Virus genome (UHGV): UHGV-1834803
Direction: 5' to 3' (one strand)
DNA: 42,379 nt
Source: a virus
Shown here: positions 3,825 to 42,379 of the stretch, one piece after another
Layout of the letters: every line of letters starts with the position of its first letter
Numbering within the stretch: the first letter of the stretch is position 1
The notes under the pieces: model-generated
What the model was told of the DNA's origin: nothing
Seen by the model: the letters and a program-made list of their open reading frames with translations, nothing else
Databases searched by the model: none
Program-made: the position numbers and the translations under genes

Positions 3825-4418
3825 TTACTGTTTGTTATAAACAAAACCAATATCTTTCTTGTGAGGCATATCTGCTGCGGAAAAAGCTGCGATCTTCGCG
3901 AGTCGATCACATATTTCATTTTCACGATGCCCGGCGTGGCCTTTAACCCACTTCCAGCGAACATTATGTCGACTTGCGGCCTCATCCAGACGCTTCCACA
4001 GATCAACATTCTTTACCGGTTTTTTGTCAGAAGTCATCCATCCATTGCGTTTCCACCATTTCATCCACTGTGTCATGCCGTTTTTCAGATACTGGCTATC
4101 AGAGTGCAAAATAACGTTGCATGGATATTTCAAACGCTCCAGCCCGATAAGTGCCCCCATCATCTCCATACGGTTATTGGTGGTGCTATGAAAACCATCT
4201 GAGAACTCGCGTTCCTCACCACGATACTGGAGAACTATACCGTAACCGCCCGGGCCACCCGGATTTTTAAGGCAAGAGCCATCACTGAAGATTTTCACGG
4301 TTTTAAGCTGGGGATTGAATTCTACGACAGGCGTTGTGGGATTGGTGCGGGGAGAATTTTTGTTTTTGTCTTTTTTGCGAGTTTTTGCTTGCGACCGGGC
4401 TGGTGTCTTCGACGTCAT
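3825..4418 (-). CDS. rnhA: ribonuclease HI with basic N-terminal extension
   Basis: [21 protein letters not shown]...[11 protein letters not shown]...HSDSQY...KPVKNVDLW...[12 protein letters not shown] closely matches E. coli RNase HI from memory. Confidence 0.85.
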
Positions 4419-4439
4419 ATAAACTCCTGAATCAAGCGC

Positions 4440-5001
4440 CGCGCCGATTTTTTTTCCTCGCGCGTGCGCACACGCGTGCGTGTAATAATTATTAAAATAA
4501 ACAAATTACTTCCCAGTACAGGTTTTTATAAACCTGAACTGAACGAACGAAGTGAGTGAAGTTCACCTCGAACGAAGTGAGAGGTTGTCTTTTCAGGTAA
4601 TACTCTCCCAGGGAGGTGAGTATAAAATTCCTCACCAACCTGGTCGTTTCATAACCTGAAAAGTTATGGTCTAAGTCTACTGCCAGCTTAGACTTGGGAA
4701 GTTATGGATGACAGCACCCCAGAACCGAGATCTTCCCACACTTTATGAAGGGGAGTACTGGATTCAACCTCTCGAAACACCCCAGACTCGACAATCATAA
4801 AGTGACCCTTGTCTCCGCTCACTTTGGTTCCCCCTTCCCCGACACCTAAACGGCACCGGTTCTACGCTGGTAGTGAGCTTTTTTAAACCTGACGCCAGTG
4901 ACGCTTACCCCCACCCATCAGGTCGAGTCTCCAGTCTACGACTGGAAACTATCAGATCTTAGCACTTACAATTCATCTTATGAATAGTTTGTACTTATCT
5001 A
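4440..5001. other. ~560-bp ORF-free, hairpin-rich region (candidate structured ncRNA or regulatory/origin region)
   Basis: No ORF >=60 aa on any frame; alternating GC tract, direct repeats GAACGAAGTGAG, several nested stem-loops. Confidence 0.3.
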
Positions 5002-5232: not shown

Positions 5233-5418
5233 GTTAGTTTTCCTTAAAGTGGTTCATAAAATCGATTTTAAAGCGTCTGGGAAGGGGTTCTAGTGGATTC
5301 TGTAGTGGTGTTCAGGTCTGGAATCTCTGATACAAAACAGCCTGCTTCCGTATATTAATAATTAATATGTAGTTATTTATATATACAGAAGCAGGCTAAT
5401 TACAGACGCCAGAACAAA

Positions 5419-39646: not shown

Positions 39647-40909
39647 ATGCCTTTTTTAATTTTCATTATTATACTACTGCTCACCGTGATTTTTTGGGAT
39701 TGGGTTGTTTTAAATGGTCAAATTGTTGGAACATTGGCTACAGCATTTGCTTTTATAGCAACAGCATGGAATGCCTACGAAGCGAGAAAAAGTGCAAAAG
39801 CAGCTTTTTCAGCCCTTCAATTAACAACAGAATCATTGTTCGAAATGCGAAAGAGTGCATTTAAACAATGGTTTGATTCCTTATTAAATCAACATGATGA
39901 GCTATGTCTTCTTGCAAAACAAATTATCGATAAACGCAAAATTAATTTAAACAGCGATGAGTTACATAGACTATATTACCCATTGGTAAAACAGCATGAG
40001 GTAATACAGTATGTGAAGCATATTATTAATATTTTTGAGTATGTGGATAGTTCATTTTATATTGATGGGGAATGTCTAAAGGAAAAAAGAGCGTATGTGT
40101 CACAATTAATTTTCAAAATCCCACCTCAGATGAAGTTGATCATTGCTATCTTTGGATTAAAGATCGATTATTGTGAACATATTAATTCGGGAAAACTGTG
40201 TTGTTTATTAAATAAATATGATTTTTTCAATGATGAAATATTTTTTGATGATGCTTATTCAGATATGCCTTATCTGGATGCATTCATAAACCTTAGATTC
40301 AACAAAATATTCAAATCTCGAATGATAAATTATTTTGATAATATCATTAAAAGTTATTATGTTCCATCGGACGTTAAAAGGGACTGGATGTTTCGAGACC
40401 CAAAGCTCGTACCGTCGGTTCTTATGAATTATAAAACTCCTTGTTCTCCTATAATTAATGATTACTTTGAGAAGTTGCCTTTACATGTAAGAAACTACTT
40501 TGAGGAACTACTTAAAACCGCGAATGATAGAGTTACTCATTTTGACGTTTACATCCCACGCCTTATTGGTTGTTCAATCGTGCAACATTACGAAGATGTG
40601 CCTTCCGAAAAAAACAGGTTAAATGACAGGAATGATGTAATAGCTATGGCTGAAGATTACATCGAGAAAAGAAAATCTAATCAACTAGATTACATACTTG
40701 AAGATATATACTTCAAGAGTGACGAAGATATAATCCCAGGCCACCATTTGATTGTGGCATTTGATGACTATGAATTTAAATTATCACTCATTAAGATAAA
40801 TGAGAATAAAGATAGCGATAATCTTTTAAATCGAATTTATACTGAATCCAGTAGCATGGTTAAAGAATATAAGCGCGAAATATTAAAACTGGGCGACTAT
40901 GTAAAGTAA
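39647..40909 (+). CDS. AT-rich membrane-anchored protein of unknown function
   Basis: N-terminal hydrophobic helices then ~370-aa soluble domain; AT-rich, Asn/Lys/Ile/Tyr-rich composition unlike neighbours. Confidence 0.5.
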   Translation: MPFLIFIIILLLTVIFWDWVVLNGQIVGTLATAFAFIATAWNAYEARKSAKAAFSALQLTTESLFEMRKSAFKQWFDSLLNQHDELCLLAKQIIDKRKINLNSDELHRLYYPLVKQHEVIQYVKHIINIFEYVDSSFYIDGECLKEKRAYVSQLIFKIPPQMKLIIAIFGLKIDYCEHINSGKLCCLLNKYDFFNDEIFFDDAYSDMPYLDAFINLRFNKIFKSRMINYFDNIIKSYYVPSDVKRDWMFRDPKLVPSVLMNYKTPCSPIINDYFEKLPLHVRNYFEELLKTANDRVTHFDVYIPRLIGCSIVQHYEDVPSEKNRLNDRNDVIAMAEDYIEKRKSNQLDYILEDIYFKSDEDIIPGHHLIVAFDDYEFKLSLIKINENKDSDNLLNRIYTESSSMVKEYKREILKLGDYVK

Positions 40910-40923
40910 ATTGCACTGTTCAA

Positions 40924-40954
40924 CAAAAAAGGGGCCGAAGCCCCTTTGAATTTT
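40924..40954 (+). terminator. intrinsic terminator (GGGGC-CGAA-GCCCC + T-run)
   Basis: Hairpin and T-run 15 bp after the stop at 40909. Confidence 0.6.
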
Positions 40955-41019
40955 GCGCTGAAAAAAGTGTTGCTAGGATGTTAGCAAGCTATGGTTAAGA
41001 ACGTCTGCCGTAATTATCT

Positions 41020-41100
41020 ATCACAGCGTTGAGCGGTCTGGTTTATGTTAGCGGAGTCTTAATCGAGTTGATTAAAAGGCCAAACCGCTCAACGCTGTGT
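41020..41100 (-). other. long-stem hairpin immediately 3' of tRNA-Ser
   Basis: ~20-bp near-perfect inverted repeat (CACAGCGTTGAGCGGTCTGG / CCAAACCGCTCAACGCTGTG) around a ~40-nt loop. Confidence 0.35.
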
Positions 41101-41101
41101 C

Positions 41102-41188
41102 TGGCGGAGAGTAATGGAATCGAACCATCATCGTTTGCACAATGGGACGGTTTTCAAGACCGCTTGAGCACCATGCTCCCTACTCTCC
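41102..41188 (-). tRNA. tRNA-Ser (anticodon UGA), type II, encoded CCA
   Basis: Hand-folded: acceptor GGAGAGT/ACTCTCC, anticodon loop CTTGAAA, long variable arm, T-loop TTCGATT. Confidence 0.7.
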
Positions 41189-41287
41189 AGCTATTGTGAT
41201 GGTCGGTGCTGAACTCCGACACAGGGTTGTAGCAAGCCCCGCAAAGCGCGCACTACTGTAGTTGCGGCACATCAGCCTGTGCATTCA

Positions 41288-41367
41288 TCACAATGGTAAG
41301 ATCACTACCTTTCGACCAGTCATTGTGCACATGAACGACGATTAACCGTAATGATATTATCGTTGTG
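41288..41367 (-). ncRNA. long-stem hairpin element A (candidate small stable RNA)
   Basis: ~16-bp stem (CACAATGGTAAGATCA / TGATATTATCGTTGTG, with wobbles); paralogous to element B. Confidence 0.3.
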
Positions 41368-41417
41368 TTGTGAAGCCAGATGCTTATCTTCTGGTTGCTT
41401 CAAAGAGCTGCACTTCC

Positions 41418-41507
41418 TCACAACGGTAAGAGCACTGGTCTGACTCTATCGATTTACGGCCTTGTGGGTCAGTATCGCCGATTCGCCCAATGCTCTTACC
41501 TGTTGTG
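41418..41507 (-). ncRNA. long-stem hairpin element B (candidate small stable RNA), abutting the tRNA-Thr 3' end
   Basis: ~16-bp stem (CACAACGGTAAGAGCA / TGCTCTTACCTGTTGTG) around a ~55-nt interior. Confidence 0.3.
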
Positions 41508-41508
41508 T

Positions 41509-41584
41509 TGGTGCCGGTTAACGGACTTGAACCGCTGGCCATTCGCTTACAAAACGACTGCTCTACCAACTGAGCTAAACCGGC
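41509..41584 (-). tRNA. tRNA-Thr (anticodon UGU), encoded CCA
   Basis: Hand-folded 76-nt cloverleaf: acceptor GCCGGTT/AACCGGC, anticodon loop TTTGTAA, T-loop TTCAAGT. Confidence 0.65.
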
Positions 41585-41588
41585 AATT

Positions 41589-41675
41589 TGGTGGGGAGTG
41601 ATGGAGTCGAACCACCCGAGTCGCCATGACAGTAGATTTACAGTCTACACCGCTACCTCTACGGACTAACTCCCC
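41589..41675 (-). tRNA. tRNA-Tyr (anticodon GUA), type II, encoded CCA
   Basis: Acceptor GGGGAGT/ACTCCCC, anticodon stem-loop GTAGA-CTGTAAA-TCTAC, long variable arm. Confidence 0.75.
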
Positions 41676-41680
41676 TAAAT

Positions 41681-41755
41681 TGGCGATGGTGGGTGGATTC
41701 GAACCACCGACCAGTTGGTTAACAGCCAACTGCTCTACCGCTGAGCTACACCATC
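41681..41755 (-). tRNA. tRNA-Asn (anticodon GUU), encoded CCA
   Basis: Acceptor GATGGTG/CACCATC, anticodon stem-loop GTTGG-CTGTTAA-CCAAC, T-loop TTCGAAT. Confidence 0.75.
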
Positions 41756-42072
41756 AATTCAGCACTGCCAGTATTTATTACTCAACAGTGCCAATCGCGA
41801 CGGTTTAGTTTCTGCCAGGAAACGCACCGCTACTTGCACTTTTCGTTAGTGCCAGACGCTTTCGACTTCGCTCAATAGTAGAAGGGGGAACCGCAGAATT
41901 CGGAAAAAATCGTACGCTAAGCTAACGGTGTTCTCGTGACAGCTCTTTGACTAGGCTTTCTAAGGCCATTCTGATAGCCCTGACTTCCTGAAAAGCCATG
42001 GCTAAAATTTGTGCGGCTAAAAGGGATAACCGATGGTAAAGTAAGTTATCCCTGTCGAGATACTGAAAAGCG

Positions 42073-42379
42073 TTATCCTCGTTTTTCCCAAAACTGTTTT
42101 GCCAGTTCGCTCAGAGCGCTAGTTAACTGAGCGACAGATTTCGCACTTTGCAAATTATTCTGCCCGGTCTGTACATTGGTATCAGCAGCATCGCGTATAT
42201 TGATAATACTGCGGTTTATGTCTTCACTTACTGCTCCCTGCTGCTCGACCGCAGTCGCTATTTGCGCGTTCATGTCGGTAATTTCGTTAACGCGTTGGCC
42301 AATTCCATCAAGAGCTGTAGCTGCGGCACTGTTGCAAATAGTCGGTGGTGATAAACTTATCATCCCCTTTTGCTGATGG
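42073..42379 (-). CDS. partial ORF with MCP signalling-domain-like C-terminus (N-terminus beyond window)
   Basis: VNEITDMNAQIATAVEQQGAVSEDINRSIINIRDAADTN resembles the conserved C-terminal part of methyl-accepting chemotaxis proteins. Confidence 0.4.
   Translation of the reverse strand, partial: HQQKGMISLSPPTICNSAAATALDGIGQRVNEITDMNAQIATAVEQQGAVSEDINRSIINIRDAADTNVQTGQNNLQSAKSVAQLTSALSELAKQFWEKRG

Follow-up and report, generated by a model that had tools for sequence, protein, structure and literature searches.

The tRNA cluster of phage T4 encodes two stable RNAs, species 1 and species 2, which are highly structured and are not tRNAs, and Paddock et al. 1976 reported that species 1 is cleaved by RNase III. 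In the leader of the lambda N gene, a long stem (+81-96 paired with +187-202) lies between nutL and the N ribosome-binding site, and RNase III cuts it at about +88 and +197. Processing of this leader by RNase III is cited in PMC5371410 (ref. 19) and PMC9032294 (ref. 15), and the stem is attributed to Steege 1987 and Kameyama 1991. Among host genes, metY-nusA-infB gives rise to a transcript out of which RNase III frees a tRNA (Regnier and Grunberg-Manago 1989, as cited in PMC5371410), and this transcript and the rRNA stalks have in common that RNase III cuts a stem by or around a stable RNA and so frees it from a polycistronic transcript (references in PMC5371410 and PMC8708148). The enzyme accommodates a duplex of about 22 bp (PMC6212723). 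In the Qin prophage, an RNase III site in dicBF is attributed to Faubladier 1990 and Ragunathan 2023; a 190-nt DicF species is lost without RNase III, and its 5' end has been mapped (Ragunathan et al. 2023, PMC10448788).

Here we compare with these systems a locus in the virus genome UHGV-1834803, analysed as one stretch of 42,379 nucleotides (the window). Judging by its sequence, the window is an SSU5/pHCM2-like phage-plasmid of E. coli: the tRNA region is 99.7% identical to E. coli phage-plasmids of roughly 110 kb, and 767 of the 781 places that match this region are on plasmids. A segment linked to IS26 sits in place of the native upstream operon, which makes expression in this window uncertain. 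At the right end of the window, lambda tL3 was ruled out, the sequence there being the end of IS26, and the 96-aa ORF at 42073-42363 is a chimera of an aer fragment and IS26 that has only its length in common with the 96-aa 'C-type natriuretic protein' of relatives. On a single minus-strand transcript, the elements of the tRNA region would follow one another in this order:

41681-41755, minus strand: tRNA-Asn (GTT), called by ARAGORN, Rfam tRNA model 75.5 bits, CCA encoded
41589-41675, minus strand: tRNA-Tyr (GTA), called by ARAGORN, Rfam tRNA model 41.6 bits, long variable arm, CCA encoded
41509-41584, minus strand: tRNA-Thr (TGT), called by ARAGORN, Rfam tRNA model 66.8 bits, CCA encoded
41419-41507, minus strand: hairpin A, inverted repeat I3, covariation in alignment A2, match to model R2
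41363-41428, minus strand: module S, a three-way-junction RNA motif of 66 nt, model R1 84.1 bits, E = 7e-23
41289-41367, minus strand: hairpin B, a paralogue of A through direct repeat D2, match to model R2
41193-41294, minus strand: module X, a closed multi-hairpin from minimum-free-energy folds, folding z = -2.05
41102-41188, minus strand: tRNA-Ser (TGA), called by ARAGORN, annotated as tRNA-Ser in RefSeq relatives, atypical D arm, CCA encoded
41022-41099, minus strand: hairpin C, inverted repeat I1, match to model R2
40928-40947, minus strand: intrinsic terminator ending the tRNA operon, the sole terminator-like site on either strand of 40700-42379

The terminator is kept in relatives and is placed to stop the convergent ORF 39647-40909 as well. 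Jointly with the RNase III explanation developed below, we consider it probable that an operon on the minus strand of an SSU5/pHCM2-like phage-plasmid has this region as its 3' end, which is non-coding.

Genes for tRNAs were called with ARAGORN on the window and with the Rfam tRNA model (RF00005, gathering score 29). ARAGORN finds exactly four, all on the minus strand and each with an encoded CCA, in agreement with the Asn, Tyr, Thr and Ser genes of the original prediction. Under covariance models, the folds of the Asn, Tyr and Thr genes exceed the Rfam gathering score, whereas the Ser gene is not reported by the tRNA model and is classed as atypical because it reaches only 44.8 bits with the tRNA-Sec model (gathering score 47). 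In the D6 record, the amino acid of its counterpart was left uncalled by tRNAscan-SE. On the E. coli chromosome, the Asn gene is matched best by a tRNA-Lys (79%), and the other leading match is a tRNA-Thr (77%); among these chromosomal matches there is no host Asn or Tyr gene matching those of the window, just as had been proposed for these two genes. Together with the plasmid matches given above, this supports the proposal that all four tRNAs are element-encoded.

Hairpin A starts 1 nt past the CCA of tRNA-Thr and has a 6-bp base (CACAAC/GTTGTG) followed by a bulged A; its upper stem runs for 14 bp, the fourth pair from the top being U.G, and is capped by a 48-nt loop (folding z = -5.5). Hairpin C starts 2 nt past the CCA of tRNA-Ser, with a 20-bp stem (CACAGCGUUGAGCGGUUUGG/CCAGACCGCUCAACGCUGUG) and a 38-nt loop that holds the conserved GACUCCGC (folding z = -9.8); in the relative L007, one of its G-C pairs has become A-U through a compensatory change. 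Hairpin B has a 39-nt loop and 17 of 20 positions paired, compared with 19 of 20 in the relatives L004 and L068, and with a folding z of only -0.6 it is partly decayed in this window. The predicted third hairpin of about 20 bp right after tRNA-Ser is therefore present, and two hairpins do abut tRNA 3' ends; the paralogy proposed for the other two holds, but the stem of A, like that of C, measures about 20 bp, not 16. As background, each strand of a mononucleotide-shuffled window yields 4-9 hairpins of 15 pairs or more, and stems of at least 20 pairs with few G.U pairs, like those of A and C, are represented in the real window by C and an unrelated palindrome at 5335-5401.

Comparison with the tRNA regions of related phages revealed that these hairpins belong to a widespread, conserved family with covarying stems. 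Its members occur in P1, D6, SSU5-like plasmids, the siphovirus Sasha, the Qin prophage, and E. albertii, Klebsiella and Salmonella plasmids, and share a common design in which a 6-bp base, CACAAC/GUUGUG, lies under an upper stem that spans 14 bp and contains a conserved U.G pair, with stem lengths of 20-26 bp across the family. In the stem arms of 20 members (alignment A2), 94.3% of cells are paired, as opposed to 35-57% with the partners slid, a percentage inflated by the building of the alignment from sequences already recognised as hairpins; 13 of 18 pairs have changed on both sides, which was equalled in none of 500 shuffles. Furthermore, elements picked by their position just 5' of S, with pairing ignored, all form stems of about 20 bp from differing sequences. 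Read on the tRNA strand, the stems show 95 G.U pairs against 40 A.C mismatches, and for each hairpin of the window the minus-strand score under model R2 exceeds the plus-strand score by 20-30 bits (A, 65.9 versus 45.5 bits; B, 55.6 versus 26.8; C, 70 versus 40.6). On the evidence of these alignments and scores, the hairpin structure belongs to the tRNA strand; that is, it is conserved as RNA on the transcribed strand. Its placement also follows a rule: a hairpin of 17-27 bp comes 1-3 nt past the CCA of the tRNA that ends a run in 32 distinct contexts, and in 24 contexts a tRNA is directly followed by the next tRNA.

We hold, with moderate confidence, that the hairpins serve as processing stalks for RNase III, through which tRNA 3' ends are freed and the modules parted from one another. 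The 5' end of each tRNA would be cut by RNase P, and the 3' ends of tRNA-Asn and tRNA-Tyr would be freed by the RNase P cut at the next tRNA, 4-5 nt on, followed by exonuclease trimming. No tRNA lies downstream of tRNA-Thr or tRNA-Ser, and the stem of about 20 bp found 1-2 nt past the CCA instead would stop 3' exonucleases, yet has the size of an RNase III substrate. A cut in the lower third of this stem would leave at most about 10 nt of trailer to be trimmed off, and the same cut would detach the downstream modules, so that the stem-loop tops, S and X may persist as small RNAs. Set against a duplex of about 20-22 bp, the stems are of suitable size, with 6 + 14 bp and one bulge in A, 20 bp in C and 17 of 20 positions paired in B. 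We infer cleavage by RNase III from homology with the dicF-precursor site of Qin and from analogy with the lambda N leader, metY-nusA and the rRNA stalks, and the fate and function of the released pieces likewise. Covariation, spacing from the CCA, stem length and the Qin homologue thus favour, by inference, the earlier suggestion that the hairpins are processing signals.

The Qin member occupies positions 2671-2764 of the Qin locus L133 and, although excluded from the building of R2, reaches 23.5 bits with it (E about 7e-5), compared with 11.9 bits for the opposite strand, a modest score from a model whose E-values are rough. The covariance model was used for this comparison because BLAST of the Qin hairpin against the family left its short arms undetected and found only a neighbouring 33-nt segment. 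The site has the family design (6 + bulge + 13): a base CCAUAAC/GUUGUGG, a 1-nt bulge, a 13-bp upper stem and a U.G pair near its top. Counting 190 nt back from the dicF terminator leads to about L133 2746-2751, within the 3' arm of the hairpin, a position that comes from length arithmetic and a guessed transcription start rather than from the figure of the published study and is uncertain by about 5 nt. It is this location of a family member, where the DicF precursor has a 5' end that depends on RNase III, that makes RNase III stalks the best explanation. The RNase III link depends on this one homologue. Like the locus in the window, the Qin site is part of an extended non-coding tract in the early operon of a temperate phage, other segments of which also occur in P1 (a dicF-like region and the 33-nt match); unlike it, the site has no neighbouring tRNA, and its product is an sRNA precursor rather than a tRNA.

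The other systems are more distant. Lambda gave no match to R1 or to R2 (R2 at E <= 1) and has neither S nor the hairpin-family consensus, so the likeness of its N leader to the window hairpins is one of position and function, not of sequence. The metY-nusA-infB and rRNA stalks belong to host genes and are unrelated in sequence, and the rRNA stalks enclose their product, whereas the stems in the window come after the tRNA. Going by its general description, the T4 cluster resembles our locus in being a phage tRNA operon with structured non-tRNA RNAs; T4 is virulent, and its species 1 and 2 RNAs carry tRNA-like ends. Searches of the literature on P1 plp and upl, on phage-plasmid non-coding RNA and on the P1 transcriptome returned no RNA data for the element or for the P1 region.

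The hairpins might instead be passive structural spacers that keep 3' exonucleases, RNase E and Rho-dependent termination from acting on a tRNA transcript that is not translated, with no specific cleavage of the stems. More than 1 kb of RNA is untranslated here and would be exposed to Rho, the 801-nt region as a whole folds at z = -6.5 relative to shuffled sequence, the stems of A and C are stable by the z values given above, and the absence of a U-tract after the stems means that they are not terminators. An uncut, stable stem 1-3 nt past the CCA would, however, impede maturation of the tRNA 3' end, generic protection does not explain a fixed stem of about 20-22 bp with a conserved base and U.G pair, and the Qin homologue sits at an RNase III-dependent end. 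We therefore regard passive spacers as unlikely.

The space between the hairpins is more than spacer, as it contains two structured modules, S and X, that were missed in the original prediction. S is the sole match to R1 in the window. The family is defined (R1) by a three-way junction of helices P1, P2 and P3 with J1/2 GAAKUGCA and a P3 loop AAGAYMAGCRY, a definition under which the window copy falls with helix P1 GUUGUGAGG/CUUCACAAC, J1/2 AAGUGCA, helix P2 GCU/AGC with loop CUUUGA, and helix P3 CCAG/CUGG with loop AAGAUAAGCAU. The 5' strand of helix P1 doubles as the 3' strand of the hairpin A base, GUUGUG being common to both. In alignment A1, 92.5% of cells are paired and 9 pairs are altered on both sides, a result reached in none of 500 shuffles; across 67 distinct variants, the stems covary and the core and loops are nearly invariant. 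S also occurs in the N-gene leaders of lambdoid phages (in P22, gene 24), where it lies within a 15-18-bp stem between nutL and the N ribosome-binding site, which in P22-like and other lambdoid phages is the place of the lambda N-leader stem. Few genomes have been studied as thoroughly as those of P1, P22 and the lambdoid phages. BLAST found only six E. coli genomes with the lambdoid S leader, the conserved core being too short for BLAST at that database size. The copies in the window, P1, Sasha and two N leaders match no Rfam family, and the string CCAGAAGATAAGC is absent from the literature searched. A coding role for S was ruled out because inserts of 10 or 12 nt in P2 break the frame, and a copy of boxA was rejected too: GCUCUUUGAAGC looks like boxA by eye in P1-type copies, but P2 covaries and other variants lose the likeness.

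Tentatively, and with low confidence, we propose that S represents a new functional RNA class of enterobacterial temperate phages, an autonomous processing or regulatory module such as a switch. In the switch form, helix P1 of S would compete with the base of hairpin A and so decide whether the full 20-bp RNase III substrate forms; alternatively, S could be a host-factor binding site or a self-cleaving element. If this reading of S is true, phages use the module both in N-gene leaders, from nutL to the ribosome-binding site, and in tRNA operons.

In module X, a closing stem (AUUGUGAUG/CAUCACAAU) surrounds four small hairpins; its start overlaps the base of hairpin B and its end lies 4 nt ahead of tRNA-Ser. 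According to minimum-free-energy folds, the closing stem is kept in three divergent versions (GUGAUG/CAUCAC versus GUGGUGG/CCACCAC), as are the first hairpin (GCACA/UGUGC, UCGCA/UGCGA and GCGCA/UGCGC) and the last (GUCGG/CCGAC versus GCCGG/CCGGC). A C/D box or K-turn was considered for GUGAUGA...CUGA and rejected, the snoRNA matches being weak and at chance level. The dicF-dicB spacer and the P1 segment downstream of the fourth P1 hairpin score 33-34 bits with STnc100 (RF02076), below its gathering score of 47, and open with a GUGGUGAAUGC...GCUGA motif, as does X; X itself gave no match to STnc100 at E <= 10.

Conserved sequence within modules raises the further question of whether the hairpins, S and X encode small RNAs that act in trans, such as DicF-like regulators or decoys against host defences, and that are expressed and processed through the tRNA operon. 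Pieces of hairpin loops are conserved, namely GACUCCGC in type C, a canonical and perfect T-arm (GGGTTCGAATCCC) in P1 hairpin H2 and UAACGGGNUCAUAUCCCAAUCUAC in P1 hairpins H3 and H4, and a pure cutting site does not explain them. The near-invariant core of S points the same way, as do the dicF-like region within the same P1 operon and related Salmonella elements in which a tRNA-Thr scaffold carries an insert of about 60 nt in place of the anticodon arm, resembling a tRNA-scaffolded RNA. Against this, there are no known targets, the loops of orthologous hairpins diverge widely while the stems stay, and modules are gained and lost freely as whole units between close relatives. We think such a role rather improbable, and it would in any case be compatible with release by RNase III rather than an alternative to it.

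The same whole-unit presence and absence could suggest that the inverted repeats act as DNA, being either mobile elements of the MITE type or sites for recombination, perhaps like attC, at which tRNA cassettes are shuffled. A and S are jointly absent from the relatives L005 and L008, in an indel with the direct repeat CAACACAAC at its borders, members of the family are found in phage backbones that are unrelated, and a tyrosine recombinase gene lies 2.4 kb from the region. The direct repeat, however, is merely the repeated stem base, so ordinary recombination accounts for the indels, and the preference for G.U pairs on the transcribed strand speaks for RNA. MITE- or IS-derived repeats were rejected, as the arms covary and differ through compensatory changes instead of being copies of a single terminal repeat, and the stem-base motif is the sole flanking repeat. 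Integron attC sites were rejected as well: ACACAAC and GTTGTGA violate RYYYAAC and the core GTTRRRY, the Qin, Sasha and N-leader copies have no integron context, and those of Qin and Sasha lack a nearby integrase of that kind. Action as DNA is thus very unlikely.

Equally hard to sustain is the view that the hairpins are decayed, functionless pseudo-tRNAs. It could draw on the T-arm in the P1 H2 loop and on remnants of the tRNA-Thr acceptor end (AACCGGCAC) that precede the Sasha and P1 H3 copies, but ARAGORN and Rfam find no tRNA within the hairpins, a 20-bp closing stem is foreign to tRNAs, and compensatory changes indicate that the stems are under selection. Small proteins encoded on the opposite strand are scarcely credible: the P1 record does annotate two products, Upl of 63 aa and Plp of 125 aa, on the strand opposite the segment, where the four P1 hairpin copies lie, but plp overlaps tRNA-Thr, with an annotated translation that starts with L rather than M, no corresponding ORF exists in the window, D6 or RefSeq relatives, and whole-module indels disrupt any reading frame.

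Known RNA classes did not account for the elements. Rfam models including C4, DicF, STnc100, GOLLD, ROOL and self-cleaving ribozymes gave nothing relevant in 40800-42100 at E <= 10 or in the whole window at gathering score, and a search of the window, P1, Qin, Sasha and two N-leader loci, at gathering score and at E <= 10, was limited in its yield to tRNAs, DicF, the cIII thermometer of lambda and weak matches to STnc100, none of which fell on the hairpins or S. Intrinsic terminators were rejected for A, B and C, which have no U-tract, and Y RNA (YrlA) was rejected as its order of T-arm and long stem does not fit and its sole matches are tRNA T-arms.

A shared, modular set of structured RNAs across the early-operon leaders and tRNA operons of P1, P22 and lambdoid phages appears to be undescribed, and the P1 ORFs upl and plp are probably mis-annotations of structured RNA. 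If the stalk reading is right, the tRNA arrays of phages bring their own 3'-end processing signals, which would replace the RNase E route of the host; this would account for how tRNA cassettes can move between phages and yet mature correctly, and would couple the supply of phage tRNAs to the activity of RNase III in the host. The region also offers a defined, testable set of substrates for the rules of RNase III cleavage.

ARAGORN, run over the whole window, returned exactly four tRNA genes, all on the minus strand, with an encoded CCA and inside the interval of the original prediction, and folding confirmed the three long-stem hairpins proposed between and after them, here called A, B and C. 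The claim that hairpins abut tRNA 3' ends also stands: A begins 1 nt past the CCA of tRNA-Thr and C 2 nt past that of tRNA-Ser. Missed at that stage was motif S, a conserved three-way junction of 66 nt between A and B. Module X lies 5' of tRNA-Ser.

Features of the tRNA and hairpin region
41681-41755, minus strand: tRNA-Asn (ARAGORN, confirmed by Rfam), encoded CCA
41589-41675, minus strand: tRNA-Tyr (ARAGORN, confirmed by Rfam), encoded CCA
41509-41584, minus strand: tRNA-Thr (ARAGORN, confirmed by Rfam), encoded CCA
41419-41507, minus strand: hairpin A, 6-bp base CACAAC/GUUGUG, bulged A, 14-bp upper stem, 48-nt loop; z = -5.5
41363-41428, minus strand: motif S, P1 helix of at least 9 bp; J1/2 GAAKUGCA; P2 of 3-4 bp with CNNNGA loop; P3 CCAG/CUGG with loop AAGAYMAGCRY
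41289-41367, minus strand: hairpin B, paralogue of A, three pairs lost in the window; z = -0.6
41193-41294, minus strand: module X, closing stem AUUGUGAUG/CAUCACAAU, ending 4 nt before tRNA-Ser
41102-41188, minus strand: tRNA-Ser (TGA) (ARAGORN), encoded CCA
41022-41099, minus strand: hairpin C, 20 bp, 38-nt loop; z = -9.8

A, B and C share a design that marks one widespread hairpin family, and a homologue in the E. coli K-12 prophage Qin points to what they may do. The hairpin at L133 2671-2764, in a non-coding stretch of the Qin dicBF operon, is built like the family, down to base, bulge, upper stem and U.G pair; R2, the covariance model of the family, from whose building this hairpin was excluded, scores it at 23.5 bits (E ~7e-5), and its other strand at 11.9 bits. 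A 190-nt DicF species, its 5' end mapped by primer extension, is lost without RNase III (Ragunathan et al. 2023, PMC10448788). Measured 190 nt back from the dicF terminator, this end would lie at about L133 2746-2751; measured 813 nt from the transcription start, itself a guess from promoter sequence, it would lie at about 2751. Both positions fall in the 3' arm of the Qin hairpin, near the junction of upper stem and base. RNase III holds ~22 bp of duplex (PMC6212723). Precedents are known from the metY-nusA-infB transcript, out of which the enzyme frees a tRNA, from the rRNA processing stalks and from the lambda N leader. By homology with Qin, RNase III would cut A, B and C in the lower third of the stem, so that the trailers left on tRNA-Thr and tRNA-Ser would measure ~10 nt or less. 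Of the earlier proposal of processing signals or small stable RNAs, the processing part, specifically by RNase III, is the best-supported mechanism, with cleavage predicted from the Qin homology, and we consider it moderately likely that A, B and C are RNase III processing hairpins. The loops, S and X could possibly be trans-acting small RNAs, which is compatible with release by RNase III. Were the hairpins passive protective spacers, their fixed length, conserved base and the Qin data would be left without explanation.

Covariation argues that the stems of the family are maintained as RNA. When the stem arms of 20 members, sequences already chosen as hairpins, are aligned, 94.3% of cells are paired versus 35-57% with slid partners, 13 of 18 pairs have changed on both sides (0 of 500 shuffles as high), and the commonest state fourth from the stem top is a U.G pair. 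Because of this preselection, a second set was picked by position alone, directly 5' of motif S; its stems are again ~20 bp, with different sequences. On the tRNA strand, family stems contain 95 G.U pairs against 40 A.C mismatches, and R2 gives each of A, B and C a minus-strand score that exceeds the plus-strand score by 20-30 bits. Some copies have embedded tRNA fragments, as pseudo-tRNAs might, but selection on the stems contradicts that origin, and both the covariation and the G.U bias contradict inverted repeats acting at the DNA level. R2 finds no family copies in the window besides A, B and C, and hairpin B is intact in relatives. Unrelated to this family is a hairpin between ORFs at window 5335-5401, a near-perfect palindrome of 20 bp whose 25-nt loop is AT-rich.

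Placement relative to tRNAs is regular. Among all fetched loci, a 17-27-bp hairpin stands 1-3 nt past the CCA of the last tRNA of a run in 32 distinct contexts, and the next tRNA comes directly after a tRNA in 24. The exceptions are a separate tRNA-Met/Ile2 gene, unrelated phages and one Salmonella-type relative (L007), in which tRNA-Ser precedes a coding sequence and tRNA-Asn a scaffold derived from tRNA-Thr. Close relatives gain or lose entire modules; two (L005 and L008) lack A and S, and the edges of this indel are the repeated stem-base motif CAACACAAC. Further members occur in D6 and in plasmids of E. albertii, Klebsiella and Salmonella. The siphovirus Sasha (L009) has a family hairpin without a tRNA, in a 415-nt non-coding gap of its structural operon; a second hairpin of 25 bp, G.U-rich (minus strand 2670-2749), shares this gap between gp37 and gp38 with it and a copy of S. 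Phage P1 carries four members on the tRNA strand of its ban operon, beneath the annotated ORFs upl and plp (L001 1376-1945, plus strand of the locus), which are also antisense to its motif S, plp overlapping tRNA-Thr. Proteins encoded by these antisense ORFs would be a rival reading of the segment, but the ORFs are not conserved; upl and plp have no counterparts in D6, the window or RefSeq plasmids and are therefore probably not genes.

Motif S has a distribution of its own. Two pattern scans of viral contigs gathered at least 67 distinct variants; in an alignment of 28 of them, 92.5% of cells are paired versus 29-54% for slid partners, both members of nine pairs have changed, and the observed covariation score is not reached in any of 500 shuffles. 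The 10- or 12-nt inserts in P2 rule out a coding role, and no Rfam family matches. R1, the covariance model of S, matches the window once (84.1 bits, E = 7e-23), matches P1, D6, Sasha and several plasmids once each, and matches neither lambda nor Qin; 13 of 14 confirmed copies in species-representative genomes are in Enterobacterales. Among the matches listed, no tRNA lies near about half of the viral copies; many of these occupy lambdoid pL leaders (including P22 gene 24), where S lies inside a 15-18-bp stem with nutL boxA/boxB on one side and the Shine-Dalgarno sequence for an N-like gene on the other. Lambda has a long stem at that place, the site at which RNase III processes the N leader. 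With the P1/SSU5 arrangement, GUUGUG serves both as the base closure of the preceding hairpin and as the 5' strand of the S P1 helix, so only one of the two helices can form at a time. Several of the S-bearing loci outside both tRNA arrays and N leaders have in common an element ACCACCG(C/G)GCCTGATGTGGTTAAAAG(C/A)CAGGC, ~150-250 nt upstream of S (L013, L018 and L077); this could be a further conserved leader RNA, conceivably a put-like one.

The closing stem and the first and last hairpins of X are kept through compensatory changes in three divergent versions. At its 5' end X is similar to the beginning of the Qin dicF-dicB spacer (L133 2933-3142), which is closed by a ~20-bp stem (GTGAATTTTGTGATGTGGTG / CACTGCATCACAAAATTCAT) and has homologues in P1 (L001 1218-1337) and D6, in the segment that comes next to their last hairpin on its far side. 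The spacer and the P1 segment each match Rfam STnc100 weakly, at ~34 bits, below the gathering score.

The tRNA region is 99.7% identical to ~110 kb E. coli plasmids such as p22AR0322A, and of the 781 places that match it in E. coli assemblies, 767 are plasmid-borne. The annotation of p22AR0322A (RepB, nrdAB, thymidylate synthase, DfrA51, DNA polymerase III alpha, ligase, primase and a DnaB-like helicase) is an SSU5/pHCM2-type phage-plasmid set; parts of the region are common to P1, P7 and D6 at 82-97% identity. Similarity to SSU5-like relatives ends at 41885. Beyond it, 42060-42323 is 100% identical to an 'aer' aerotaxis-receptor fragment adjoining IS26 in phage SJ46 and one P1-like record, and an IS26 end occupies 42324-42379, so the native upstream part is missing; a 96-aa ORF (42073-42363; MCPsignal domain, E = 0.001) is a chimera of the two. 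Upstream of tRNA-Asn, relatives have ~460 extra nt absent from the window (L002, p22AR0322A, 3857-4634, with a matching stretch in L004, L005 and L008) that hold two further long-stem hairpins, GTAACAGAATGGGCGGTTGGT...ACTGACCGCCCATCCTGTTAC and GTTGTGAAGACGGG...CCTGTTTTCACAAC, which an IS26-linked rearrangement removed here. We found no sigma-70-like promoter on the minus strand upstream of tRNA-Asn in the window, and 40700-42379 contains a single terminator-like site, at 40928-40947, minus strand. The relatives have the array after a minus-strand operon that includes a ligase gene, and in P1 it sits within the C1-controlled ban operon.

The closest host-chromosome relatives of the tRNAs are one tRNA-Lys (79%) and one tRNA-Thr (77%), a distance indicating that the array belongs to the element, as had been suggested. 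tRNA-Ser is atypical, with an odd D arm, and scores higher on the Rfam tRNA-Sec model (44.8 bits; gathering score 47) than on the tRNA model; ~89% identical copies occur in rV5-like phages, records labelled Campylobacter phage and many other phages. The first array tRNA of L014, L015 and L040 is identical to tRNA-Asn of the window in acceptor and T arms, with an anticodon arm that is either Asn (GTT) or Arg (TCT) and a differing D loop; these sequences look like the outcome of an exchange of anticodon arms inside one scaffold. In Salmonella-type relatives (L007 minus strand 862-994, also L055), a 133-nt derivative of tRNA-Thr retains the acceptor, D and T arms and carries ~60 nt with three small hairpins in place of the anticodon arm. 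It looks like a natural tRNA-scaffolded RNA, and ARAGORN yields only a forced 'Val with a 42-nt intron'. A 13-bp hairpin (41760-41799, minus strand; GATTGGCACTGTTG...TGGCAGTGCTGAAT) stops ~5 nt short of where tRNA-Asn begins and is kept in relatives.

RNase III hairpins in phage operons are of an already known kind; what appears to be new, relative to Rfam and the paper library searched, is the recognition of this hairpin family and of its link with tRNA 3' ends, as well as motif S.
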